Part shown: positions 1-62,605 of the stretch, in pieces | How the letters are laid out: each line of letters begins with the position of its first letter | How positions within the stretch are numbered: position 1 is the stretch's first letter | Assembly: GCA_031418775.1 (NCBI GenBank) | Contig: JANOJN010000016.1 | Location: 5,771 to 69,770 of the forward strand | Direction: 5' to 3' | DNA: 64,000 nt | DNA from: Acidimicrobiia bacterium | GTDB taxonomy: Bacteria; Actinomycetota; Acidimicrobiia; Acidimicrobiales; JANYDT01 | The notes under the pieces: generated by a model | What the model was told of the DNA's origin: nothing | What the model saw: the letters and a program-made list of their open reading frames with translations, nothing else | Database searches by the model: none | Program-made: the position numbers and the translations under genes

Positions 1-697
1 GCCATCGCCGGTCGGAGGCGTCGACGGTGAAGTTCACGCCGTCGACGAGGGCGGCCTCCGTTGTGGGTAGGGACGCTTCGACTCGTCCCGAAGCGAACAC
101 CGTCCACGATGCTGTCCATACGCGTCCGGTCTCGATCTCGGCCTTCCACGTGATCTCGAGGGATGACCCGCGGACGGCAAATGAGGCGGCGCCGTCGACG
201 ACCACGGTGGCGAAAAGTTGACCGTCTCGTTGACTTGTCGCCCGCGGCCCTTCGCCGATCGTCCACGGAAGCGCCGGCCCAGGGGATCGCCCGGACCGGA
301 GACGAAGGATCGACGCGCCGTCGGACTCGAGGACGACGACGAGCTCGACCGTCTTCGTCGGTCCGAAGGAGTGCAGCTCGATGTGCTCGGTGACCGAGCC
401 GTCGACGACGGTTCGCCGCCGGATGAGCAGCGCCTTGGCGTTGCGGTGTGCATCGAGAGCAGCAAGGGATGCGATGCGGTCCGATGAGGCGCCGGTGCGA
501 TCCGACGCGAGCATTGGTGGCTCAAGGCCGTCGAGCAGAACGGTGACCGAACTGAGCAGCCGCTCGTCACGGAAGAAGACCCCGAGGAGAGAACCCGGTC
601 GGATCGCACCGGGTCGCGACGACAGCGAAATGGTGGTTCCTCGAACGAGTGTCGTCGTGTCGCTGGGAGCGAGCACCTCGATCGATGGGTTTGTCAT
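1..697 (-). CDS. glycogen-debranching-enzyme N-terminal domain / amylo-alpha-1,6-glucosidase family protein (5' part only; continues beyond left window edge)
   Basis: Absent from the ORF track because it has no in-window stop. I checked the minus frame from ATG 697-695 down to nt 2: 232 codons, no stop, G/C-rich third positions. N-terminus MTNPSIEVLAPS...GSLLGVFFRDERLLSSVTVLLDGLEPPML resembles the GDE_N_bis domain. It lies directly downstream of the sugar ABC operon. Confidence 0.5.
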   Translation of the reverse strand, partial: MTNPSIEVLAPSDTTTLVRGTTISLSSRPGAIRPGSLLGVFFRDERLLSSVTVLLDGLEPPMLASDRTGASSDRIASLAALDAHRNAKALLIRRRTVVDGSVTEHIELHSFGPTKTVELVVVLESDGASILRLRSGRSPGPALPWTIGEGPRATSQRDGQLFATVVVDGAASFAVRGSSLEITWKAEIETGRVWTASWTVFASGRVEASLPTTEAALVDGVNFTVDASDRRW

Positions 698-731
698 TGC
701 ATCCAGTTGTAGTTGATGGACCGAGCGGAAC

Positions 732-1700
732 TCAGCCCTTGACTGCGCCCGATGAAAGACCTTGACGGAAATGCTTCTGGAACACGAAGAACATGATCGC
801 CATCGGAATGGTGGTCAGCATCGCTCCGGAGAGCATCGTGGCCCATGGAACCGACGTGCCGAACTCGCCCTGCAATGACGCCAGACCGACGGGAAGCGTG
901 CGGAGCTGGGGCGCGGCAGGGGTGGCGATGAGGACCTTCACGAACTCGTTCCACACACCGTTGGTTCGAAGGATGAGCAGCGTGAGCACTCCCGGCGCGG
1001 CCATCGGGAGGATCACGACGCGGAACGTCGTGAAGCGCGATGCGCCGTCGATGGCTGCCGATTCTTCCATTTCGCGGGGGATCTGCTCCATGAACTGTTT
1101 CATGACCAAGATGTCGGCGATATCGAACAGCAGGGGAACGATGATTCCCCAATAGGTGTTCAAGATGTTGAGCTGCTTCATCATGATGAACTGCGGGATG
1201 ATCAGGACGATCCCCGGAATGCCCATCAGCAGAACGATGAGGAAGAACACCGCTCGCTGACCGCGGAACTTCATACGGGAAAGTGCGTAACCCGCGAGTG
1301 AGGCGATGATGATTCGACCTGTCACGACAACCACAGTGACGAACACCGAGTTGATCATCCACCGGGGGAAGTCGACGCTGTCCTTGTTCAGCCCTTTGAG
1401 GCCCTGAAGACTCGGGCTCCCGAGGGCGCGGCTGAAGCTCAGGCTGGTCGGGTGCTTCGAGATATCCGGGTCGGACTTGAACATGCTGATCGCCGACAGA
1501 ATGAACGGCGAGATGTAGGTGAGTGCCGCGGTGATCAGGATGGCGTAGAGGAACACCTTCAGCGCAAGGCGCTTGCGTCGTTCCTTCTTCTGCTGAATGA
1601 GCCAGTAGTCGATCTCCGCCGGGGCGTCGATGATGACCGTCATCGGTTCATTCCTTCCGGCGCTGGGTCGTTCCGTTTCATCAGTCGTACCCCTTGTCAC
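732..1700 (-). CDS. carbohydrate ABC transporter permease (MalG-like)
   Basis: 322-aa ORF with multiple hydrophobic helices. It has the EAA-type loop (EESAAIDGASRFTTFRVVILPMAAPG) typical of binding-protein-dependent permeases, and overlaps the upstream permease gene by 20 nt. Confidence 0.9.
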   Translation of the reverse strand: MTRGTTDETERPSAGRNEPMTVIIDAPAEIDYWLIQQKKERRKRLALKVFLYAILITAALTYISPFILSAISMFKSDPDISKHPTSLSFSRALGSPSLQGLKGLNKDSVDFPRWMINSVFVTVVVVTGRIIIASLAGYALSRMKFRGQRAVFFLIVLLMGIPGIVLIIPQFIMMKQLNILNTYWGIIVPLLFDIADILVMKQFMEQIPREMEESAAIDGASRFTTFRVVILPMAAPGVLTLLILRTNGVWNEFVKVLIATPAAPQLRTLPVGLASLQGEFGTSVPWATMLSGAMLTTIPMAIMFFVFQKHFRQGLSSGAVKG

Positions 1701-2736
1701 TCACGAGCATGCGTTGGACGAACGTGAAGACGGCGATGATGAAACACAACAGCACTGCGAGCGCCGCAGCAAGGCCGGCCTGTCCATTCTTGAAAGACTG
1801 GAAGTAGATCCAGAACGCCGGTGTGATCGTCGACTTGTCGGGCCCGCCGAAGCTCATGGCGAAGATCTGGTCGAAGACCTGCCACGTTCCGACAAGGCCG
1901 AGGACCAGCACCAGGTAGACCTGCGGTCGGAGCATCGGCAGCGTGATGTAGCGCATGCGCTTCCACCCGGTAGCGCCGTCGAGCGTCGCCGCTTCGTCGA
2001 GGGACTCCGGGATGTTCTGCAGACCGCCGAGGAAGATGAGCATGAGCGTGCCGCTCGTCGTCCAGATGACGCTCGACATGATTGCCGACATCGCGACGCT
2101 CGGCCCGGCGAACCAGTCCCACCAGCTCAGCCCGAAGAACGAGCCCTTCATGAAGCCGGGTGGTTTGTCGACGCCGAACACCCCGAGCAGGTTGTGGAAC
2201 GTGCCGCGAGAATTCCCGAACCAGTTGACCTTCTTGCCCGGGAAGATCTTGTTCGCCAGCCCGTCCACCTGGAACATGAACTTGAAGATCAGCGATACCG
2301 CGATCGAGCTGGTGATCGAAGGAAAGAAGAACGCGAGCCGAAAGAAGCTGCGACCCTTGAGGAACTTCTGGTGGACGACAACGGCGAGCACGAATGCCAG
2401 AAAGGTCTGAATCGGCACAACGAAGATGACGTAATAGAAGTTGTTCTTCAACGACAGCGCGAAATCGGACCTCCGCAGCGAGTCGTCGACGATCAGCGTC
2501 TTGTAATTGTCGAGGCCGATGGACACGGCCTTCTGCGGTGGGGTGATACCGCTCCAGTCGGTGAAGCTCACCCAGACCGCCATGAAGATCGGGATCACGG
2601 TAAAGATCAGAAGCCCGAGCACGAATGGCGCGAGGAAGATCCAGCCCGTTCGGGTGTCGTGCTCGAAGAGCTCGGTCTTTCGGTTGCGGCGGTCGCGGCG
2701 GGTGACCGCCTTCTTCGGGCTCAGCGTGATTGCCAT
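1681..2736 (-). CDS. carbohydrate ABC transporter permease (MalF-like)
   Basis: 351-aa ORF with 6 predicted TM segments and the motif LDEAATLDGATGWKRMRYITLPMLRP. It sits in an operon with the SBP and the second permease. Confidence 0.9.
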   Translation of the reverse strand: MAITLSPKKAVTRRDRRNRKTELFEHDTRTGWIFLAPFVLGLLIFTVIPIFMAVWVSFTDWSGITPPQKAVSIGLDNYKTLIVDDSLRRSDFALSLKNNFYYVIFVVPIQTFLAFVLAVVVHQKFLKGRSFFRLAFFFPSITSSIAVSLIFKFMFQVDGLANKIFPGKKVNWFGNSRGTFHNLLGVFGVDKPPGFMKGSFFGLSWWDWFAGPSVAMSAIMSSVIWTTSGTLMLIFLGGLQNIPESLDEAATLDGATGWKRMRYITLPMLRPQVYLVLVLGLVGTWQVFDQIFAMSFGGPDKSTITPAFWIYFQSFKNGQAGLAAALAVLLCFIIAVFTFVQRMLVSDKGYD

Positions 2737-2858
2737 GACGTGTCCGGTCCAGAGTCGGTGCTTCGGAAACAGCGAACGAACTGCGCGAAGGAGGTCCGGA
2801 TCACCGACGCGACATTCCTCGCATCGGTGACCCGTCGTCCTCCTGAAGGAAAAGGGGC

Positions 2859-4100
2859 TTATCCCTTCAGGACGCTGTTGCCCGCCTTGTCGACGTTGGC
2901 GGCGTAGTCGTCGAAGGACTTCTCACCGCTGAAGACGGCCTTGAGTCCTTTGTTGAACTCTCCCTGTACGTCGCCGAAGCCCGGGACGAACTGGAACTTG
3001 CGGGCATACGAGGCGCCGTCGACGAAGGGCTTGAGCTCCGAACGGGGAGCGAGCCACTTCGCCGCGACCGACGCATGCGCCGGCATGACGTTGAACGCGT
3101 TGGTCCACTTCAGCGACCCGTCAGGACTGGTCAGGAAGTCGACGAGCTTCCACGCGGCGGCCTGGTTCTTCGAGTTCTTGTTCACGCCGTAGCAGACGGT
3201 GAAGGCGAAGGTGCCCTTGCCGCCGGGTCCTGCGGGCAGTTCGGCGTAGCCGACGTTCACCGCCGGGAAGTCCTTCTTCATGTAGCCGACGATCCAGTTG
3301 CCTTCGATGACCATCGCGGCCTTGCCCTTGCCGAGGGCCTCGCCGCCCCATCCGGCACCGATCTCGTCAGGTGCCTGCAGGGTCTTGGCCTTGTACATGT
3401 CGGAGAGGAGCCCGAACGCCTGCTTGTTGGCCGGGCTGTTGACCGTCATCTTGGTGATCTTGTCGTCGGTCATCGCACCGCCGGCTTGGAACATGAACAC
3501 GCCGACTCGCGGGTACTCGAAGCCCATCGACAATCCGACGACTCCGTCGCCGGTGAGCTTGGCGGAGGCCGCCTTCAGCTCGTCCCAGGTCTTGGGCGGC
3601 GTGACGCCCTTCGCTGTGAGGAGGTCTTTGTTGTACACGAGCGCGAGCGTGGAGAAGTCCTTGGGCGGGCACACGAGCTTGCCCTCGGGGGTTGAGAACA
3701 CCGTGCGCAACGATGGGTAGATGTCATCGGGCTTGGTCAAGGCGCCGGCGGGTACCGGCGCGAGTGCGCCGGCCTTGAGGAGGTCAGGCATCTTGAACGA
3801 GTCGACGTAGAACACGTCGGGCCCTGCGCCCGACGCCAGCGCGGCCTGCAGCGCTGCGTCGTATTCCTTCTGCGGATTGAAGACGGCTTTGGCCCCGGTC
3901 TTCTTGTTGAACTCGCTGACCAAGCCGGTGAGCGCACCGTCTTCTTCGGGCGAGCTGGTCCAGCCGTAGATGCTCAGCTTCTTGTTCTTGAGCACGACAG
4001 GTGCGGCCTTCTTCGTTGCCGCCGTGGCGGCCGGCGCGATGACAGCAACCGCAACAAGTGCGGCGATCGCGATGCGTGAGTTTCGACGGAAAGATGTCAC
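2859..4100 (-). CDS. sugar ABC transporter substrate-binding protein (secreted or lipoprotein)
   Basis: C-terminal 413 codons of the 536-aa ORF. GTG at 4100 is preceded by AAGGAG 7 nt upstream and is followed by a signal peptide (VTSFRRNSRIAIAALVAVAVIAPAATAATKK). The body resembles family-1 extracellular solute-binding proteins. Confidence 0.85.
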   Translation of the reverse strand: MTSFRRNSRIAIAALVAVAVIAPAATAATKKAAPVVLKNKKLSIYGWTSSPEEDGALTGLVSEFNKKTGAKAVFNPQKEYDAALQAALASGAGPDVFYVDSFKMPDLLKAGALAPVPAGALTKPDDIYPSLRTVFSTPEGKLVCPPKDFSTLALVYNKDLLTAKGVTPPKTWDELKAASAKLTGDGVVGLSMGFEYPRVGVFMFQAGGAMTDDKITKMTVNSPANKQAFGLLSDMYKAKTLQAPDEIGAGWGGEALGKGKAAMVIEGNWIVGYMKKDFPAVNVGYAELPAGPGGKGTFAFTVCYGVNKNSKNQAAAWKLVDFLTSPDGSLKWTNAFNVMPAHASVAAKWLAPRSELKPFVDGASYARKFQFVPGFGDVQGEFNKGLKAVFSGEKSFDDYAANVDKAGNSVLKG

Positions 4101-4198
4101 GGAGTTTCTCCTTGGAGCGTTTGCCAGCCAACGGCTGAGGGCTTGACGGTTGATTGGTAGGACGGGGTGCCGCGTGTTGTGGTCGTCGTGCAGTTGCG

Positions 4199-5287
4199 TC
4201 ATCCGGTCCGTCGAACGATCAGCTCGGGTTCGAGCAGCACGCCTCGGGGTTCGGAGTTCGGGTCGGCGAACTGCGCCGACAGGAGTTGGGCGATTGTTTG
4301 CGCGACCGCGGTGATCGGCTGGCGGATGGTGGTGAGCCCTCCGCCCGCGTAGGCGGCGACGGGGGAGTCGTCGAAGCCGATAACGGCAGCGTCTCGGCCG
4401 GGGACGATTCCCCGGGATTCGAGTTCGCCGAGGACAGTGAGGGCCTGGAGATCGGACATCGAGACCCATGCGGTCGGAGCATCGGGTCCGTCGAGGAGGT
4501 TCGCTATGGCTTGGCGGTCGACGACAGCATCGTCTTGGAGCGACACGATGTGGAGGTCGGCGGTGGGGATGCCCGCTGCGGCGATGGCGGAACGCACGCC
4601 CTGCTCGCGCTCGTCGTTGACGACTCCGGGTTCGCGGGGTCCGAGCCAGGCGAACCGCCGGTGACCGTTGGCGAGGAGGTGGTGGATGGCGAGTCGGGTG
4701 CCGGCGCGGCCGTCGACATCGACCCAGGAGTGTTCCGCTGCGCCCCAGGTGCGGCCGAAGCTAACAAAAGGCATGCGGCGTTCGAGAAGAGGGGCCGGGC
4801 GACGATCTTCCCGCTCCGTGCTGGAGAACACGACGCCGTCGGCCGCCGACTGTGCTGAGAGCTCCCAGTAGCGGGCGATCTCGCCGTCGAGGTCGTTCGA
4901 TGCGAACAGCAGGATGTGGCAGCCGATCGCTTCGACCGCTTCGGTCAGCTCGTGGAGGAACGTGTCCATGACGCTGTTGAGGTGGCCGACGACAGGCGGG
5001 ATCCGGTAAGCGATGGCCCGCGAGGTGCCCGTTCGAAGGTTGCGAGCGTGGTGGTTCGCCCGGTAGCCGAGGGTATTGATGGCGAGCTGCACCCGCTCGA
5101 TCGTCTCGGGGCGGACCCGGTGGGGTGCGTTCAGCACGTTCGACACCGTCTGGCGGCTGACTCCGGCGTGCCGGCCCACGTCTTCGATCGTGGGAGTGGC
5201 GTGGACGAAGCGCTCAGGCCGCTCGGAGACGACCTCGAGATGCCCGAGGGGCCCGCCAGTGCGGCGTTGCAGAACGTCATCGGTCAT
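4199..5287 (-). CDS. LacI family transcriptional regulator
   Basis: N-terminal HTH PTIEDVGRHAGVSRQTVSNVLNAPHRVRPETIERVQLAINTLGYRANHHARNLRTG followed by a periplasmic-binding-protein-like core. Confidence 0.9.
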   Translation of the reverse strand: MTDDVLQRRTGGPLGHLEVVSERPERFVHATPTIEDVGRHAGVSRQTVSNVLNAPHRVRPETIERVQLAINTLGYRANHHARNLRTGTSRAIAYRIPPVVGHLNSVMDTFLHELTEAVEAIGCHILLFASNDLDGEIARYWELSAQSAADGVVFSSTEREDRRPAPLLERRMPFVSFGRTWGAAEHSWVDVDGRAGTRLAIHHLLANGHRRFAWLGPREPGVVNDEREQGVRSAIAAAGIPTADLHIVSLQDDAVVDRQAIANLLDGPDAPTAWVSMSDLQALTVLGELESRGIVPGRDAAVIGFDDSPVAAYAGGGLTTIRQPITAVAQTIAQLLSAQFADPNSEPRGVLLEPELIVRRTG

Positions 5288-5313
5288 CGCAGGCGGCCCC
5301 CGATCGGTCGTTT

Positions 5314-5372
5314 TGAACGTTCATTTGAACGTTCATATTCTGCACAGTACGCACTTCGACTCGGCGTGTCAA
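5314..5372 (-). promoter_or_regulatory. candidate promoter (TTGACA-17 nt-TACTGT) followed by two tandem TGAACGTTCA palindromes (candidate LacI-type operators)
   Basis: On the minus strand, TTGACA is at 5372-5367, followed by a 17-nt spacer and TACTGT at 5349-5344. Perfect 10-bp palindromes TGAACGTTCA lie at 5335-5326 and 5323-5314 (12-bp period), 27-48 nt upstream of the LacI start. Confidence 0.5.
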
Positions 5373-5420
5373 CGGTCACATCGAGATTTCGACTCCGGCC
5401 CGCTCCAGCCGGCCGGGCGG

Positions 5421-6230
5421 TCAGGATCGCGGGGCGATGGCGAAGCTCGCTGTCGCCGTCTCCTTCAGCGAGCGCCCCGCCGTTCGGAGAATGCCGACGA
5501 GCAGGTCGGGGCGTCTGGTGTAGATCCCGTCCACTCCGAGGTCGACCAACTCCTCCATGTCCTTCGGGTCGTCGACGACCCACGTCAGGACCGAGGTACC
5601 CATGCGATGGCTGAACGCCAGCGATTCCGCTGTCACCCGTCGAGAACCGTTGTCCGCCTTGAACCGGGGCTGGCTCACCAGTTGCGTGGAGCGAAAGGTA
5701 CGGTCTCCCGATTCTCTGGCCGCCCGGGCGGCACGCCGCTCGGTATCGGTTCCCGATGTCCGCAGGCCAGGGCATGTCCTTCGGAACTGCAGCACTTGCG
5801 CCGAGCTGTCGGCCCCCACATAGACATCGTCGATTCGGCGCAGACGCGCAAGGAGCTCACAGACCGGTTTCACGGCGAGTGTTCGCTGATCTTTCAGGTC
5901 GAAGATGACGAGTGTGGCCGGGAAACGGCGAAGGATGGCTTCGACGCTCGGAACCGTCAAACCCTTGCCTCGGAAAGGGTGTGTGCCATGACTGGTGAAT
6001 CCCCACCCGGCATCGAGCTTGGACAATTCGGCGAACGGTGTTGTCGAAACCTTCCCGGGAGCGCCGGTCGTTCGACGCAGCGACGAATCGTGAAACGCTA
6101 CGGGCACGCCGTCGGCGGTGATCGACACGTCAATATCGATGACGTCAGCTCCCATCGCCATGCTCTTTTCGTACGCGTAGAGGGTGTTCTCGGGAAACAG
6201 GCCATCGCCACCGCTGTGGGGAATGATCAA
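5421..6230 (-). CDS. glycerophosphodiester phosphodiesterase (GDPD) family protein; possible frameshift separates it from an upstream signal-peptide ORF
   Basis: IIPHSGGDGLFPENTLYAYEKSMAMGADVIDIDVSITADGVPVAFHDSSL matches the GDPD N-terminal core (variant HSGG instead of HRG). The ORF starts at TTG 6230. See the finding on 6227-6385. Confidence 0.75.
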   Translation of the reverse strand: MIIPHSGGDGLFPENTLYAYEKSMAMGADVIDIDVSITADGVPVAFHDSSLRRTTGAPGKVSTTPFAELSKLDAGWGFTSHGTHPFRGKGLTVPSVEAILRRFPATLVIFDLKDQRTLAVKPVCELLARLRRIDDVYVGADSSAQVLQFRRTCPGLRTSGTDTERRAARAARESGDRTFRSTQLVSQPRFKADNGSRRVTAESLAFSHRMGTSVLTWVVDDPKDMEELVDLGVDGIYTRRPDLLVGILRTAGRSLKETATASFAIAPRS

Positions 6231-31175: not shown

Positions 31176-31213
31176 CCGACCATCTTGGCCGCTTCTCGGG
31201 GCTCGTTGTTCGA

Positions 31214-31310
31214 GTCAGGTCGGTGTTCTGATCACGTTGAGCTGGCTGAGCGCGGTGTTTGTTGTGCGGGTCAGGTCGGTGTTCTGATCACGTTGAGCTG
31301 GCTGAGCGCG
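31214..31310. repeat. 41-bp perfect direct repeat (31214-31254 and 31270-31310) duplicating the 3' end of the SPFH gene
   Basis: GTCAGGTCGGTGTTCTGATCACGTTGAGCTGGCTGAGCGCG occurs twice, 15 bp apart. The right copy encodes the last 12 codons plus the stop of the SPFH gene. Confidence 0.9.
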
Positions 31311-47660: not shown

Positions 47661-47911
47661 GAAGAGCGAATTTGCCGCGCTGCCCTTCGAGCGAATGACA
47701 ACGAGTCATGGTGCACGGTTCCTTCGCGCCCCAGGTGATGCGATGCACTCTGTACGGGAATCATATGCACACGGATCATATCGGGAACGGTGAGATGCGA
47801 TTCCCAGCCGGAACTCTTGGTTGTTCAATGCGTCGTCCTTATTACTTCAGACGGCGCGCGGGAGGCGGGTGTTTCGGTCTGGTGTCCCAGTGATTTTGCC
47901 GAACAAATCAT

Positions 47912-47940
47912 TTGACATCTGCGAACATGTGTTCTACCAT
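47912..47940 (+). promoter_or_regulatory. candidate promoter TTGACA-17 nt-TACCAT with embedded LexA (SOS) box-like GAAC-ATGT-GTTC
   Basis: TTGACA at 47912-47917, cGAACATGTGTTCt at 47922-47935 and TACCAT at 47935-47940. ATG 47947 begins 7 nt after the -10 (leaderless geometry). Confidence 0.5.
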
Positions 47941-47946
47941 GGTCGC

Positions 47947-49221
47947 ATGGCGAACACTGCTGCACAACAGATCGAGGCTCTCGCGCTTCTCTGCGTGCCG
48001 CGCAGTTCGTCCGTGCACTGGGACCCCACCACCGCCAAGATCGCCCTACAACAGCTACGCCGACTCCGGGGCGAGTTGGCCGCGCTCGAAGCAGTACTCG
48101 TCGGTGTTCTCAAGACCGAGACCGGCCGCGACACGAAAGCCGCATTGGCCCGCGGGTTCGGGATGTCGAACGGCGAAGCCCGCAAAGCTGAAGAGGTTGC
48201 TGACATCGTCGGACGAGTTCCCGGTGCCGGCGACGCTCTGGTGGATGGCGAAGTATCGGGGGAGCATCTGCGACACCTCAAACCGATCACCGACAACGAC
48301 GAAGCAGCCGAACTGTTGTCGTTGGCGCCGAGTCAGTCCCCAGACGACTTCGGCAGAACGGTTGCGAAGTACCTGATCGATCGTGATGCAAAGGGCGTCC
48401 GTGCGCGGCAACAACGGGCTCGGTCCGTGAAGTTCTTCAAAGCCGACAACGGCTGCGTCGGCATGCGCGTCATCCTCCCCACCCTTGAGGGCGAGCAAGT
48501 CAAAGCCACACTCAACGCGGCGTGTGATGCAGCGTGGCGTGATGCGCACCCTGAACGAGCTGAAACGCTTGGCGCGCACGACGACGAACCCCGCGAACAA
48601 CGGCTCGCCGATGCGCTCGTGGCAGTGATGAACGGCACCGCCACCGGCGGATCGACGCGAACAGCGATGGTCGTCACCATGCAAGCCGAAACTCTCGAAT
48701 GCAAGATCCTCGGTGTCGGGCCGATCCCGACGGGAGACGCACTCACTCTCGTCGACGACCCGCGAACCGATCTCTACGCCGCGGTCCAAGCAACCGACGG
48801 GGGGATCATGAAGTTCGGCCGGTCCCGAAGGCTTGCGTCACCGCTTCAGAAACTTGCCTTGGCGTTGCGAGACGGAGGGTTCTGCACCAAGCCCGGATGC
48901 TCTGCGCCGTGGCACCGATGCGATGCCGACCACATCGTCGAGTGGGACGATGGCGGTCTGACCGACATCGAGAACCTCCGTCACCTTTGCGGCTGCGATT
49001 GCCACCCGCATCGTCACGAAACCGGTGCCGAGATGACACGACAACGCGACGGCACCTGGACAATCGACAACGACTTCTTCCCGCCCAGGCCACCAACTAG
49101 ACCGGCCGTCAACCCACCCTGGCCACTACCAAGACCGGCCGTCAACCCACCCGACCTCGAGTTCCAACAACGACTCCGCCAACTCTGCTTCGCCGTTGGA
49201 CGACCCGACCCCTACTCCTAA
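47947..49221 (+). CDS. DUF222 domain HNH endonuclease (mycobacterial 13E12-repeat-family type)
   Basis: 424 aa from the internal ATG. The N-terminal DUF222-like region (LRRLRGELAALEAVLVGVL...) is followed by the C-terminal HNH core RDGGFCTKPGCSAPWHRCDADHIVEWDDGGLTDIENLRHLCGCDCHPHRH. Confidence 0.85.
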   Translation: MANTAAQQIEALALLCVPRSSSVHWDPTTAKIALQQLRRLRGELAALEAVLVGVLKTETGRDTKAALARGFGMSNGEARKAEEVADIVGRVPGAGDALVDGEVSGEHLRHLKPITDNDEAAELLSLAPSQSPDDFGRTVAKYLIDRDAKGVRARQQRARSVKFFKADNGCVGMRVILPTLEGEQVKATLNAACDAAWRDAHPERAETLGAHDDEPREQRLADALVAVMNGTATGGSTRTAMVVTMQAETLECKILGVGPIPTGDALTLVDDPRTDLYAAVQATDGGIMKFGRSRRLASPLQKLALALRDGGFCTKPGCSAPWHRCDADHIVEWDDGGLTDIENLRHLCGCDCHPHRHETGAEMTRQRDGTWTIDNDFFPPRPPTRPAVNPPWPLPRPAVNPPDLEFQQRLRQLCFAVGRPDPYS

Positions 49222-51315: not shown

Positions 51316-51702
51316 TCAACGCGGAGGGCGGCGCCCGCGGAAGAACGAGGCGAGGGCGCGGCCGAACCGGCCGAGCACGTCCTGGCCTCTCGACGGGTTG
51401 GCCCATCCTCCGACAGGAGGCGGCGATGACGGATCGCGTTCGTCGGGCTTTGCGACCTCCGGTCGTACCCGCCGCCGCATCTTCGTCACCCACCACAGCC
51501 CGAACCCGGTGAAGACCCCGAGGAACGATGCGGAGGACAACGCACGTGGCCACGCCACGCCGTTGGACTTGACGATCAGCAACTGCACAACGAACGCCAC
51601 GACCCCGACGATCACACATGCCCGCGTCGAGGCCAACGTTCGCCTCGGTTCGCGGAGTTCATCGCTGGCCGGATCCTCGGGTCGGACCGCTTCGTCTTCC
51701 AT
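51316..51702 (-). CDS. small membrane protein (two predicted TM helices), last gene of the Nfu/nuclease-like operon
   Basis: 128 codons from the internal ATG 51702, preceded by GGAGGAG and lying 4 nt after the upstream stop. Hydrophobic stretches are ACVIVGVVAFVVQLLIV and ASFLGVFTGFGLWWV. The upstream part of the 263-aa ORF overlaps the nuclease gene out of frame. Confidence 0.55.
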   Translation of the reverse strand: MEDEAVRPEDPASDELREPRRTLASTRACVIVGVVAFVVQLLIVKSNGVAWPRALSSASFLGVFTGFGLWWVTKMRRRVRPEVAKPDERDPSSPPPVGGWANPSRGQDVLGRFGRALASFFRGRRPPR

Positions 51703-51706
51703 GCCG

Positions 51707-52531
51707 TCAGTCTCCTCCGAGCGAACCACGACCGCGAGACGCCGAGAACGGACACGTGTGCTGGTAGGCGCATGTGCTGCAGGCCCACGGGGACGGGGTG
51801 GCCGAGAAGCGACGCTCGCCGCGGATGCGTTCGTCCACCTCTTGCACGAAAGCGATGGCGCGCCGGATCGTTGCCTCGTCGAAGTCCAGCGACACGACGA
51901 AGCTCCCGGTCGACCTGAGGGCCTCGTAGGAGACCCGCACTCCGGTGACCCGGCGACCGGACCGGGCGATCGGATGAGCGAGCGCGAGGAGACCGTAGAG
52001 CAGCGCGGCGGGATCGTCGTCGATCGATTCGGCGACGTGCCCGCTCTTGTAATCACGAACTTCGAGAATCCCGTCGTGGTGCAGCCATAGCGCGTCGATA
52101 CGTCCACGTACGATCACGTTGCGACGAGCACGGAACCACTGGAGATCGCATTCGCCGTCCACGTAGTGGACGTCGTCGCCGTGAACGGTTGATGGGCACA
52201 GCTCGCGGTGGGCCAGGATCCGCTGTGACAGCCATGCCGACTGCGGGGACGTCGGGTCCAGGAACCCCGCATCGTCATGACCTGCCATCGGAGCATGCCG
52301 AAGTCGGAGTTCGCGATGCAGGGAGAGCCCGAGGGCGAGTTCCTCGGTCTGTTCGGCCGCATCAGGGTCTGGTTCGAGGCGTAGAACGTGGGCCAAGCCG
52401 TACCGGCGTGGGCACGCGGCGAGATCCCGCGCCTTCGACGCCGTGATCACGAGCACGCCGGGAGACGGCTGGAACGGTGCTCCCAGGTCATCTTCGGTCC
52501 ATGCGTCCCGGCTCGCCGCGAGTCGGCTCAT
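51707..52531 (-). CDS. PD-(D/E)XK nuclease family protein with Cas4/AddB-type 4Fe-4S cysteines
   Basis: 274 aa. N-terminal Cys in ITASKARDLAACPRRY, GRIDALW...LEVRDYKSG (D...D-x-K) and the C-terminal CSTCAYQHTC (C-x2-C-x5-C). Confidence 0.75.
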   Translation of the reverse strand: MSRLAASRDAWTEDDLGAPFQPSPGVLVITASKARDLAACPRRYGLAHVLRLEPDPDAAEQTEELALGLSLHRELRLRHAPMAGHDDAGFLDPTSPQSAWLSQRILAHRELCPSTVHGDDVHYVDGECDLQWFRARRNVIVRGRIDALWLHHDGILEVRDYKSGHVAESIDDDPAALLYGLLALAHPIARSGRRVTGVRVSYEALRSTGSFVVSLDFDEATIRRAIAFVQEVDERIRGERRFSATPSPWACSTCAYQHTCPFSASRGRGSLGGD

Positions 52532-53370
52532 GGACGCAGCGTCGGTTCGACGGATGGGCTCAGTCGTGCGGCAAGGTCGTGATCAGTGGTCGACGAAACG
52601 GCGGCACACGAACGAATCGCCGGGCATGCGTCGCACCACCAACCCGGCGTCTCGATGGGATCGATCAGCACCAACTCGACCATGGCATTGAGCTGTTGGG
52701 CAGCCGCGCTGACCATAGACGTCGTGATGTCGGTGTTTCGCTCTGACGGTGAAGCGCCGAGCCACAGGTGTCGAACTCGGGCGAGCACGTCGATGTCGGT
52801 GGGCGCTCCCTGGGTGATCAGAAGAGTGAGGAGGGCGTCGTTGTCGATGTCGACGGGTGCCGTCGTAGCGTCTTCGGCGATCGATTCGTCGTGCACCTCG
52901 TGCTCGGTGGAATACGACGTGACGCGCCGTGTTCCGAGATGAACGCGCCGTATCTCGATGACGCGCGTCGCCCGATCGACCACGGTCGTGTCGCAGCGTC
53001 CCGTGAGACGGAAACGTCCTGTCCGACTTGGCCGCTCCAGGAACTCGCCGGCGCTCGGGTGGAGCGACACGAGATCGTCGCCGACGAACTCGCTGTAGGC
53101 CTGCACGGCCCGCATGAATCGCGATCGTTCCTCCGCCGAAAGCCCCGGGGGAGGGTTCTCGTCGAGCGTGTCGGCAACGGTTACGTTTCGCTGGTCGGCC
53201 ACCTCATGGGCGACGCGAATTGCCTCGCGTACCGCAGCGTCGAGGCGGAATGCGCCCTTGGCGACCGGCCGGGGCTTTGTCTCCGGATCCAGGATGGTGG
53301 CGAGAAAGCGACGACAGCGTTGCGCCGAAGTAAGACGACCGAGGCTCAGTGACGCGACTGCTACTGCCAC
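52528..53370 (-). CDS. PD-(D/E)XK-like protein, apparently catalytically degenerate, retaining Cas4/AddB-type cysteines
   Basis: 280 aa with a GTG start. LSLGRLTSAQRCRRF (N-terminal Cys), GRCDTTVVD...VIEIRRVHLG (E-x-R where D/E-x-K is expected) and CDACPAIRSC (C-x2-C-x5-C). The stop overlaps the next start (ATGA). Confidence 0.6.
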   Translation of the reverse strand: MAVAVASLSLGRLTSAQRCRRFLATILDPETKPRPVAKGAFRLDAAVREAIRVAHEVADQRNVTVADTLDENPPPGLSAEERSRFMRAVQAYSEFVGDDLVSLHPSAGEFLERPSRTGRFRLTGRCDTTVVDRATRVIEIRRVHLGTRRVTSYSTEHEVHDESIAEDATTAPVDIDNDALLTLLITQGAPTDIDVLARVRHLWLGASPSERNTDITTSMVSAAAQQLNAMVELVLIDPIETPGWWCDACPAIRSCAAVSSTTDHDLAARLSPSVEPTLRP

Positions 53371-53400
53371 GACGTCATCCTGCCGAGGTCGGAGAAACGG

Positions 53401-53742
53401 TCAGTCGAACTTGGGAACGTAGCCGCCGCGGCCCATGGAACGGCTCTCGTCGATGTCCATCTCTTCGACTCCGCCAATGACCTCGGTGACCCACGGGAGG
53501 CGGTCTTTGAGGATGCGGTTCACGCCGGCCTGCAGCGTGGTCGACGAGACCGCGCACGAACTGCACGAACCCTGAAGGCGCACTTCGACGACTCCGGTTT
53601 CGACATCTACCGACGTGAGTGCGAGGTCACCGCCGTCCTGCTGAACGACGGGACGGATCAGTTCGATGACGCTCTGCAACGCCTTCATCCGCTCGGTGCG
53701 GGCGTCGTCGGAGAGCACAGCGGTGTCAGTCATGGCCAACAT
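53401..53742 (-). CDS. NifU/Nfu-type Fe-S cluster carrier domain protein
   Basis: 113 aa. IELIRPVVQQDGGDLALTSVDVETGVVEVRLQGSCSSCAVSSTTLQAGVNRILKDRLP is the Nfu C-terminal domain with its CxxC. Confidence 0.85.
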   Translation of the reverse strand: MLAMTDTAVLSDDARTERMKALQSVIELIRPVVQQDGGDLALTSVDVETGVVEVRLQGSCSSCAVSSTTLQAGVNRILKDRLPWVTEVIGGVEEMDIDESRSMGRGGYVPKFD

Positions 53743-55650: not shown

Positions 55651-55994
55651 TCAGGTGTAGAAGGGGCTGTCGCCTGATGCGTGATCGGTCACGTCGACGA
55701 CCGTGGTGATCTCGGGGCAGGCATCCTTGATGGCGACCTCGATGCCCTGACGAAGCGTTGCCTTTGACATCGCGCATCCCTGGCAACCGCCGCCCATGGT
55801 GACGTCTCGGAGAGCGGCTGGAAGTACATCTCGTAGGCCCAACGCGGGCCGTTCGTGGTGCCGACCTCGAGCCAGAGCGCAAGGGAGTCGGCATCGAGTT
55901 CGGCAGCGCGTGCGTCGAATACCGTTGCACGGGCTCCGTCGGTCACCGTGAGCACGATGGTGGACCGGTCGAGGATGTCAGTCATGGCTTCCAT
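55651..55994 (-). pseudogene. NfuA-like Fe-S protein remnant (internal deletion plus frame change)
   Basis: Frame A reads (M)TDILDRSTIVLTVTDGARATVFDARAAELDADSLALWLEVGTTNGPRWAYEMYFQPLSE and then becomes junk. Frame B reads ...RDVTMGGGCQGCAMSKATLRQGIEVAIKDACPEITTVVDVTDHASGDSPFYT, the C-terminal half of an Nfu domain. About 110 codons are present in total, where roughly 190 are expected. Confidence 0.5.
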
Positions 55995-62386: not shown

Positions 62387-62605
62387 ATGGCAACGAAGAA
62401 AGCAGCAGCTCCCGCGAAGAAGGCTCCGGCCAAGAAAGCGGCAGCGAAGAAGGCAGCTCCGGCCAAGAAGGCCGCTCCGGCTAAGAAGGCAGCAGAGAAG
62501 AAGTCCGCTCCGGCCAAGAAGGCAGCAGTGAAGAAGGCCGCTCCGGCCAAGAAGGCAGCAGCCAAGAAGGCCGCTCCGGCCAAGAAGGCAGCAGCCAAGA
62601 AGTAG
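62387..62605 (+). CDS. stand-alone (P)AKKA-repeat, histone-H1-like basic protein (72 aa)
   Basis: The ATG lies 4 nt after the HU stop, with GGGGA 9 nt upstream. MATKKAAAPAKKAPAKKAAAKKAAPAKKAAPAKKAAEKKSAPAKK... equals the C-terminal tail of HupB/Hlp-type proteins but is in a different frame from the HU core. Confidence 0.6.
   Translation: MATKKAAAPAKKAPAKKAAAKKAAPAKKAAPAKKAAEKKSAPAKKAAVKKAAPAKKAAAKKAAPAKKAAAKK

Follow-up and report, generated by a model that had tools for sequence, protein, structure and literature searches.

The [4Fe-4S] cluster found in nucleases such as AddB, AdnA, Cas4, Exo5 and Dna2 has a debated role, and has been viewed as a structural staple, as a means of recognising DNA ends and as a redox sensor. 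Pairing of a live nuclease with a dead paralogue recurs in RecB/RecC, XPF-ERCC1 and Mus81-Eme1, where the degenerate domain serves in DNA binding or as a scaffold; the proteins described below share no sequence kinship with the ERCC4 family, and RecC belongs to a motor complex. We know of no Fe-S (iron-sulfur) cluster retained by the dead partners in the RecC, XPF-ERCC1 and Mus81-Eme1 systems. Among Cas4-like enzymes, solo, phage-borne, helicase-fused and prokaryotic Argonaute (pAgo)-linked forms have been described, in a phylogenomic survey of Cas4 (PMC5704561) and in a study of ACE1 (PMC12094033). In AddB and AdnA the cluster has been implicated in DNA-end binding or in a wedge role, and ACE1 threads single-stranded DNA (ssDNA) (PMC12094033). 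Here we analyse a 64,000-nucleotide stretch of DNA (the window) from an Acidimicrobiia bacterium (GenBank assembly GCA_031418775.1, contig JANOJN010000016.1), in which two adjacent genes encode a Cas4/AddB-type nuclease of 274 amino acids (aa) with intact motifs and a 280-aa relative, predicted to be non-catalytic, that has kept all four cysteines of the cluster signature.

By sequence, the 274-aa protein is a bona fide PD-(D/E)XK nuclease of family PF12705 with the four-cysteine Fe-S signature. It matches the Pfam model at E=1.1e-20 (75.1 bits against a cut-off of 22) over residues 29–261, covering model positions 2–247 of 247. The N-terminal cysteine occurs in LAAC40PRRY, the nuclease motifs read GRID146AL and EVRD160YK162, and the three remaining cysteines form C251-ST-C254-AYQHT-C260. 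For each protein we collected a family of distinct sequences, 43 for the 274-aa protein and 51 for the 280-aa protein, and aligned them to local hidden Markov models (HMMs). Residues C40, H72, C112, D146, E157, D160 and K162 of the 274-aa protein are invariant in all 43 relatives, and C251, C254 and C260 are present in each of the 38 sequences that are complete. The predicted catalytic residues are H72, D146 and D160-Y-K162, and the complete conservation of the H, D and D-x-K residues argues that catalysis is under selection. Against the PDB, the family profile found the nuclease domain of mycobacterial AdnB (7sjr_B, E=8e-4) and the Cas4-family enzyme ACE1 (9iab_A). The protein scored 31.9 bits with the Cas4 equivalog TIGR00372, short of the 65-bit cut-off, and PADLOC-DB v2 gave weak, generic single-domain matches to its models of Cas4, DruK and Aga-Cas4-like nucleases.

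A fifth cysteine of the 274-aa protein, C112, stands with H108 in an H-x3-C-P motif. It lies outside the canonical four-cysteine iron staple and has no counterpart in the 280-aa paralogue.

Sequence comparison alone says little about the 280-aa protein: BLASTP found no similarity to the 274-aa protein, the window protein had no match in the Pfam, NCBIfam or PADLOC libraries, and PDB sequence searches with the single proteins returned nothing useful. Since BLASTP detects no kinship, the case for paralogy is made from profiles and structure. Alignment of the two family profiles with hhalign gave a probability of 88% (E=3e-6), pairing GRCDTTVV..IEIRRVHLG of the 280-aa family with GRIDALWL..LEVRDYKSG of the 274-aa family as well as the C-terminal cysteine motifs. 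Within a wider set of 280-aa relatives, 13 of 31 members match PF12705 directly, and a local HMM built from this wide family matches 274-type proteins at 1e-8 to 1e-11. An AlphaFold2 (AF2) model computed from a diverse alignment (A4) reached a predicted local distance difference test score (pLDDT) of 89.2 and a predicted template modelling score (pTM) of 0.83; it supersedes an earlier model from a shallow alignment (A1), which had a pLDDT of 61.8 and a Foldseek E of only 8e-3. The best Foldseek match of the A4 model in the PDB was the nuclease domain of AdnA (6ppr_A, E=8e-8), followed by ACE1 (9iac), RecE and Cas4, with the matches including Cas4 SSO0001 (4ic1), Exo5 and MGME1. In BFVD, the model matched phage Cas4/RecB-like exonucleases. 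These profile and model comparisons point to a remote homologue, and paralogue, of the 274-aa protein with a Cas4/AddB-type fold. An initial annotation of this DNA had given both proteins a Cas4/AddB-like Fe-S nuclease fold and called them a paralogous pair. Both statements hold, the first through PF12705 for the 274-aa protein and through hhalign, AF2 and Foldseek for the 280-aa protein, and the second as a remote relationship seen by profile and structure and not by BLASTP.

The cysteines of the 280-aa protein lie in SAQRC19RRF and in C246-DA-C249-PAIRS-C255, and all four, together with E80 and Y92, are found in each of the 51 sequences of its family, including those of only about 25% identity. 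Conservation of the cysteines in orthologues had been proposed as a check by the initial annotation, and the four ligand positions are indeed invariant in these 51 sequences and in the relatives of the 274-aa protein. R141 (98%), H55 (90%) and E139 (86%) are also highly conserved in the 280-aa family, and the motif II aspartate, D127, is retained in 35 of its sequences (69%). The positions that align with D160 and K162 of the 274-aa protein are R142 and H144, and across the family they hold an aspartate in one sequence of 51 and a lysine in two. With D-x-K lost throughout, the 280-aa protein is predicted to be a dead paralogue, a member of the superfamily by structure and non-catalytic. Both families share an E-x-R, which in the live protein comes before the catalytic D-x-K and which we therefore read as structural. 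The conservation pattern further predicts strong constraint on the 280-aa protein to retain both the Fe-S ligands and a new surface that is conserved. The nuclease fold assigned earlier to both proteins thus stands, and what that annotation missed is that one of the two is predicted to be live and the other, by loss of D-x-K, dead.

The two genes are inseparable in the data available. In every locus with enough sequence (related loci are numbered L001 to L034), a 280-like gene lies directly upstream of a 274-like gene, with a spacing of −4 to +13 nt. Unfused pairs were found in a near clade (L001–L013), in L004–L006, in L015/L016, L019 and L020 and, at 28–36% identity, in the distant loci L021 and L026–L030. 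Four lineages or more (L014/P0081, L018/P0097, L023 and the L022/L025/L031 group) carry both as a single open reading frame (ORF) with the dead domain first. Since independent assemblies contributed the five members of the P0081 cluster, we argue that this fusion is not an assembly artefact. Invariable adjacency and recurrent fusion constitute Rosetta-stone evidence, and argue for a physical, obligate complex of the 280-aa and 274-aa proteins. They also dispose of the alternative that unrelated genes are adjacent by chance and that the cysteine pattern of the 280-aa ORF is fortuitous. The lack of BLASTP similarity within the pair and the missing library match of the 280-aa protein would fit such a coincidence; it is refuted by cysteines invariant in 51 and 43 relatives (to about 25–30% identity), by homology in profile and structure, by universal adjacency and by the fusions, and with this gene order recurring in every related locus we give it next to no credence.

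Carriers of the near clade are Acidimicrobiia metagenome-assembled genomes. The near-clade profile (A1) found 41 representative clusters among 1.84 billion, a number that probably underestimates the family because the profile is narrow; a scan of metagenomes was made with alignment A2, and a further protein search with the A4 alignment added only two members. Three weak solo PF12705 matches on low-GC contigs (L032–L034), with no 280-like neighbour, we assign to other subfamilies and do not count against the pairing. The most distant unfused pairs, on contigs of 56–74% GC, have a gene for a DUF4012 membrane protein divergently upstream (L026 2336–4192, L030 3–2150) and a thiolase-like (TLP1) gene downstream (L029 2195–3718, L030 3290–4810).

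We propose, with a probability of roughly 55%, that the pair forms a helicase-less two-subunit Fe-S nuclease that trims ssDNA ends or flaps in chromosomal repair. By analogy with AdnA, AddB, Cas4 and ACE1, the 274-aa subunit would thread ssDNA to an Mg2+ or Mn2+ site formed by H72, D146, D160 and K162, with its fold stapled through a [4Fe-4S] cluster by one N-terminal and three C-terminal cysteines. The 280-aa subunit would be an ancient paralogue with a four-cysteine cluster of its own and a family-specific surface comprising H55, E80, E81, Y92 and R141. Its most likely task is to bind the live subunit and to provide recognition of DNA ends or branches, or a scaffold, much as the Fe-S wedge would in AdnA/AddB or the dead, nuclease-like domain in RecC. 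Live and dead subunits together would then trim ssDNA ends or flaps during repair of the chromosome. In the Acidimicrobiia-type lineage, the complex would be translationally coupled to a small membrane protein of 128 aa, the cytoplasmic GGWANP tail of which probably tethers or regulates it, and a neighbouring housekeeping Nfu plausibly delivers both clusters, a link that would be specific to the lineage and would not define the system.

The structural matches also allow the pair to be seen as part of a larger machine, working in trans with a motor or helicase whose gene lies elsewhere, as a split, motor-less equivalent of AdnAB or AddAB in double-strand-break resection. The solved structures nearest to the 280-aa and 274-aa proteins are the AdnA and AdnB domains, respectively, which come from one heterodimeric motor-nuclease, and Cas4-like nucleases have repeatedly been found linked to UvrD or YprA helicases (PMC5704561). 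At the locus itself, both proteins are single-domain and have no room for the SF1 motors of AddAB, AdnAB or RecBCD. Neither the window nor any of about 15 independent contexts that we examined has a helicase gene next to the pair, and the window's only helicase is an unrelated HrpA-like DEAH gene 9 kb from the pair, bearing out the earlier remark that no helicase lies nearby. Moreover, both nuclease domains of AdnAB are active, as the constructs named in PDB titles, AdnA(D934A)-AdnB(D1014A), indicate, while one of the two is dead here. We consider action in trans with a motor arguable but unlikely.

The module in the window consists of four closely packed genes on the minus strand (Table 1). 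Direct reading of the junctions recovered all the spacings given by the initial annotation (30, −4 and 4 nt): 30 nt between the nfu stop and the start of the 280-aa gene, read on the reverse strand, an ATGA overlap of the 280-aa stop with the 274-aa start, and 4 nt between the 274-aa stop and the 128-aa start. The latter is an ATG inside a longer stop-to-stop ORF and is preceded at 9–15 nt by the GGAGGAG that the annotation had pointed out, and every motif it had listed (GSCSSC, SAQRCRRF, LAACPRRY, CDACPAIRSC, CSTCAYQHTC, GRIDAL and EVRDYK) is in place. GC content is flat over the cluster region. A promoter and terminator scan returned 0 promoter-like sites and terminator-like sites at chance level, none of them within the intergenic gaps of the four genes, including the 30-nt gap between nfu and the 280-aa gene.

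Table 1. Genes of the nuclease module and its flank, in window coordinates
Feature	Position	Strand	Description
Nfu-type Fe-S carrier	53401..53742	-	113 aa, single NifU C-terminal domain, C60-SS-C63; upstream neighbour
Degenerate Cas4/AddB/AdnA-like PD-(D/E)XK-fold protein	52528..53370	-	280 aa, GTG start; predicted non-catalytic partner subunit
Cas4/AddB/AdnB-type PD-(D/E)XK nuclease	51707..52531	-	274 aa, intact motifs; predicted catalytic subunit
Small hydrophobic protein	51316..51702	-	128 aa; third component, restricted to some lineages

The 128-aa protein had been credited with two hydrophobic helices. The segment at aa 28–44 is strongly hydrophobic (Kyte-Doolittle 3.0) and fits a transmembrane helix well; the second, at aa 55–73, is weak, averaging about 1.2 by hand calculation, and is followed by an Arg-rich stretch. 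The C-terminal tail carries the motif GGWANP[ST]xxQ at aa 98, which is conserved in homologous loci. Homologues directly follow the pair or fusion, in many cases overlapping it by 4 nt, in L003, L004–L006, L007–L012, L014 and L019, and none was seen downstream of the distant pairs L015, L020, L021 and L026–L031. Matches of the protein to PspM, LapA and endonuclease V were rejected as sub-threshold and probably arise from its hydrophobic, Arg-rich composition. For PspM (Rv2743c), NCBIfam gave 19.9 bits where the cut-off is 80 and Pfam 15.9 with a cut-off of 27.7, and neither pspA nor clgR occurs among the neighbours scanned.

The 113-aa Nfu protein is a full-length match to PF01106 (E=1.1e-21, 77.1 bits against a cut-off of 27, model positions 2–67 of 67) with a GSCSSC motif, and scores far below the cut-offs of the NfuA and NifU equivalogs. 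It adjoins the pair in the same subset of lineages as the 128-aa protein. In L004/L006 it is on the opposite strand; in L019 it is again on the opposite strand, with an Rv2466c-like gene between it and the pair. No Nfu was found within the available flanks (1–5 kb) of the other, more distant pairs and fusions. It is also the most conserved gene of the block, at 84% identity between the window and L004 and 94–98% across the near clade; between the window and L004 the 280-aa protein is 33% identical, the 274-aa protein 43% and the small protein 35%, and the 280-aa protein ranges from 33 to 91%. The gene belongs to a wider syntenic run of xseA, an NfuA-like gene, a nitroreductase, in some genomes a gene for a short-chain dehydrogenase/reductase (SDR), and then nfu, with synteny to xseA, the nitroreductase and HpcH aldolases maintained between genomes. 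The initial annotation had seen here a four-gene arrangement with a dedicated, co-transcribed Fe-S donor. As an arrangement conserved in relatives, the adjacency of the pair holds in all loci with sufficient sequence, and Nfu and the 128-aa protein accompany it in the Acidimicrobiia-type subset only. The label of a dedicated donor we have had to drop, since Nfu is encoded on the other strand in two lineages and is missing beside the distant pairs and fusions. A housekeeping carrier in a conserved neighbourhood fits at least as well, and such a carrier may well load the two clusters.

Two further observations concern these neighbours. The NfuA-like gene of the window (55651–55994, minus strand), the second there with a NifU domain, lacks 304 internal nt that L007 and L010 have, a deletion that breaks the frame. 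The gene encodes about 217 aa in L004, L007 and L010, and in the window it is represented by ORFs of 101 aa (no Pfam match) and 63 aa, the latter matching the C-terminal half of PF01106, which would make it either a pseudogene or an assembly artefact. A gene for an Rv2466c-like, DsbA-fold thiol reductase lies divergently beside the pair in two lineages (L015 2735–3382 and L016 290–937; L019 854–1345).

This company invites a reading in which the two Fe-S proteins are not primarily DNA enzymes and work in the homeostasis of iron-sulfur clusters or of redox state, as a reservoir of clusters, a sensor or a regulator, with Nfu, NfuA-like, nitroreductase and Rv2466c-like proteins. Counted by lineage, Nfu recurs as a neighbour in four, the nitroreductase in three and the Rv2466c-like gene in two, and the dead subunit has retained its cluster ligands perfectly. 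The complete conservation of the H, D and D-x-K residues in the 274-aa family speaks against such a role, the distant pairs and fusions have no redox or Fe-S neighbours, and conserved synteny within one bacterial class could explain the association; we hold such a role to be improbable. A further proposal, which we regard as equally doubtful, is an envelope-associated, Fe-S-gated nuclease, whose live subunit would be switched on or off at the membrane according to whether the dead subunit's cluster is loaded or oxidised; the cluster would come from the neighbouring Nfu, and thiol or nitro-reductases would reset it. Were it true, DNA cleavage would respond to iron or redox status or to foreign ssDNA on its way in, and a nuclease-family cluster would have a purely regulatory or sensing role.

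The same genes could be assigned to host defence, as the initial annotation had tentatively suggested alongside DNA repair and processing. The pair would then be a membrane-tethered, solo-Cas4-like anti-plasmid or anti-phage system that degrades incoming, possibly single-stranded DNA at the envelope, with the dead paralogue as its sensor or regulator. In its favour, interference with plasmid DNA has been reported for enzymes of the solo-Cas4 family, and ACE1 acts in pAgo immunity (PMC12094033). The 274-aa protein has its weak PADLOC matches to the models of Cas4 and DruK, there is a membrane partner, the 280-aa and small proteins diverge more quickly than the genes around them, and a DUF222/HNH gene lies 2 kb away. 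Against this stand the searches made in and around the window. PADLOC-DB v2 reported no defence system, and Nfu, the 280-aa protein and the 128-aa protein had no match to it at all. The 64-kb window has no CRISPR-like array in the Tandem Repeats Finder (TRF) output and no Rfam match, and no cas domain or pAgo occurs among the neighbours scanned, in line with the earlier observation that cas genes and CRISPR arrays are missing nearby. Phage and plasmid records and IMG/VR held no relatives, the locus shows no GC anomaly, and the membrane protein is missing from most of the distant lineages. The housekeeping synteny persists between genomes whose 280-aa proteins are up to 67% different, and it is because of this vertical inheritance in a housekeeping neighbourhood that we favour repair. 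As no evidence favours a defence module, we find that assignment rather unlikely.

Several points weigh against a two-subunit repair nuclease as proposed here. The only DNA-repair neighbour that we saw, a point in its favour, is LigD in L021, a distant high-GC metagenome contig, where the pair (4199–5741) is divergent from a gene for a 777-aa protein (1900–4233, minus strand; no Pfam or NCBIfam match) that is followed by LigD (2–1792, minus strand), with Prim-Pol, phosphoesterase and ligase domains, two genes from the pair. Other neighbourhoods show no repair theme and are heterogeneous, with DUF4012, thiolase-like, Rv2466c-like, PrmC, SHMT and glycosyltransferase genes. Redox and Fe-S genes that recur as neighbours (Nfu, NfuA-like, nitroreductase, Rv2466c-like) might indicate a role outside repair, and co-transcription of nfu with the downstream genes in the window genome is a prediction, if a likely one, made from the spacing. 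The case for an obligate complex is drawn from gene linkage and fusions. Finally, the residues that the 280-aa family has kept (H55, D127, E139 and R141) may allow it residual or altered catalysis.

Elsewhere in the window, the DUF222/HNH endonuclease gene (47821–49221, plus strand), about 2 kb from the module and in the same place in L003, L008 and L009, has at its 3′ end a 33-nt tandem repeat of 2.2 copies (49080–49152) that encodes a Pro-rich stretch. A second 33-nt unit, repeated 4.3 times at 62405–62602, is Lys/Ala/Pro-rich, reads AKKAAPAKKAA in one frame and resembles the C-terminal tails of actinobacterial histone-like proteins. At 31205–31310 there is a direct tandem duplication of a 56-nt unit (1.9 copies, 96% identical).

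In the pair, evolution appears to have removed catalysis from one paralogue and kept its four cluster ligands, in 51 of 51 sequences, along with its adjacency or fusion to a live partner. A compact, helicase-free pair of proteins of about 270 aa, in which a non-catalytic role of the cluster would be separable from catalysis, could serve as a natural separation-of-function system. It may also represent a repair factor of Acidimicrobiia and of further high-GC lineages (probably Actinomycetota) seen mainly in metagenomes. Its value is tempered by a narrow distribution in mostly uncultured organisms and by a function that is predicted only. A live/dead Fe-S nuclease pair or fusion was not described in the Cas4 survey (PMC5704561), the ACE1 study (PMC12094033) or the wider literature that we searched, in keeping with the first impression that the arrangement was new, and the arrangement of the pair is conserved.

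Set beside known systems, the window proteins are closest in build to the iron-staple nucleases of the Cas4/PF12705 family, such as Cas4 SSO0001, solo-Cas4 and ACE1. They share with these a stand-alone format of about 200–280 aa, a PD-(D/E)XK core and one N-terminal cysteine with a C-terminal C-x2-C-x5-C, to which the 274-aa protein adds the full D...D-x-K, and both match Cas4 or ACE1 by profile or structure. Unlike Cas4 and ACE1, they have no CRISPR-cas or pAgo partner and have a membrane partner in one lineage, and the 274-aa protein falls below the TIGR00372 cut-off. The Nfu carrier resembles other NifU C-terminal carriers in its full-length PF01106 domain and CxxC, and differs from the features known for that family in its gene linkage to a nuclease pair, here lineage-restricted and not always on the same strand. 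With AdnAB and AddAB the pair has in common two paralogous RecB/Cas4-like nuclease modules that occur together, the AdnA domain being the best structural match of the 280-aa protein and the AdnB domain the best profile match of the 274-aa protein. It departs from them in having no SF1 motor domains or adjacent helicase gene and in the degeneracy of one nuclease module. Nor did we find described for the Cas4 family a fixed pairing or fusion with a catalytically dead paralogue that retains cluster ligands of its own. Such a predicted live/dead heterodimer would add to the Cas4/PF12705 family an architecture that it has lacked.

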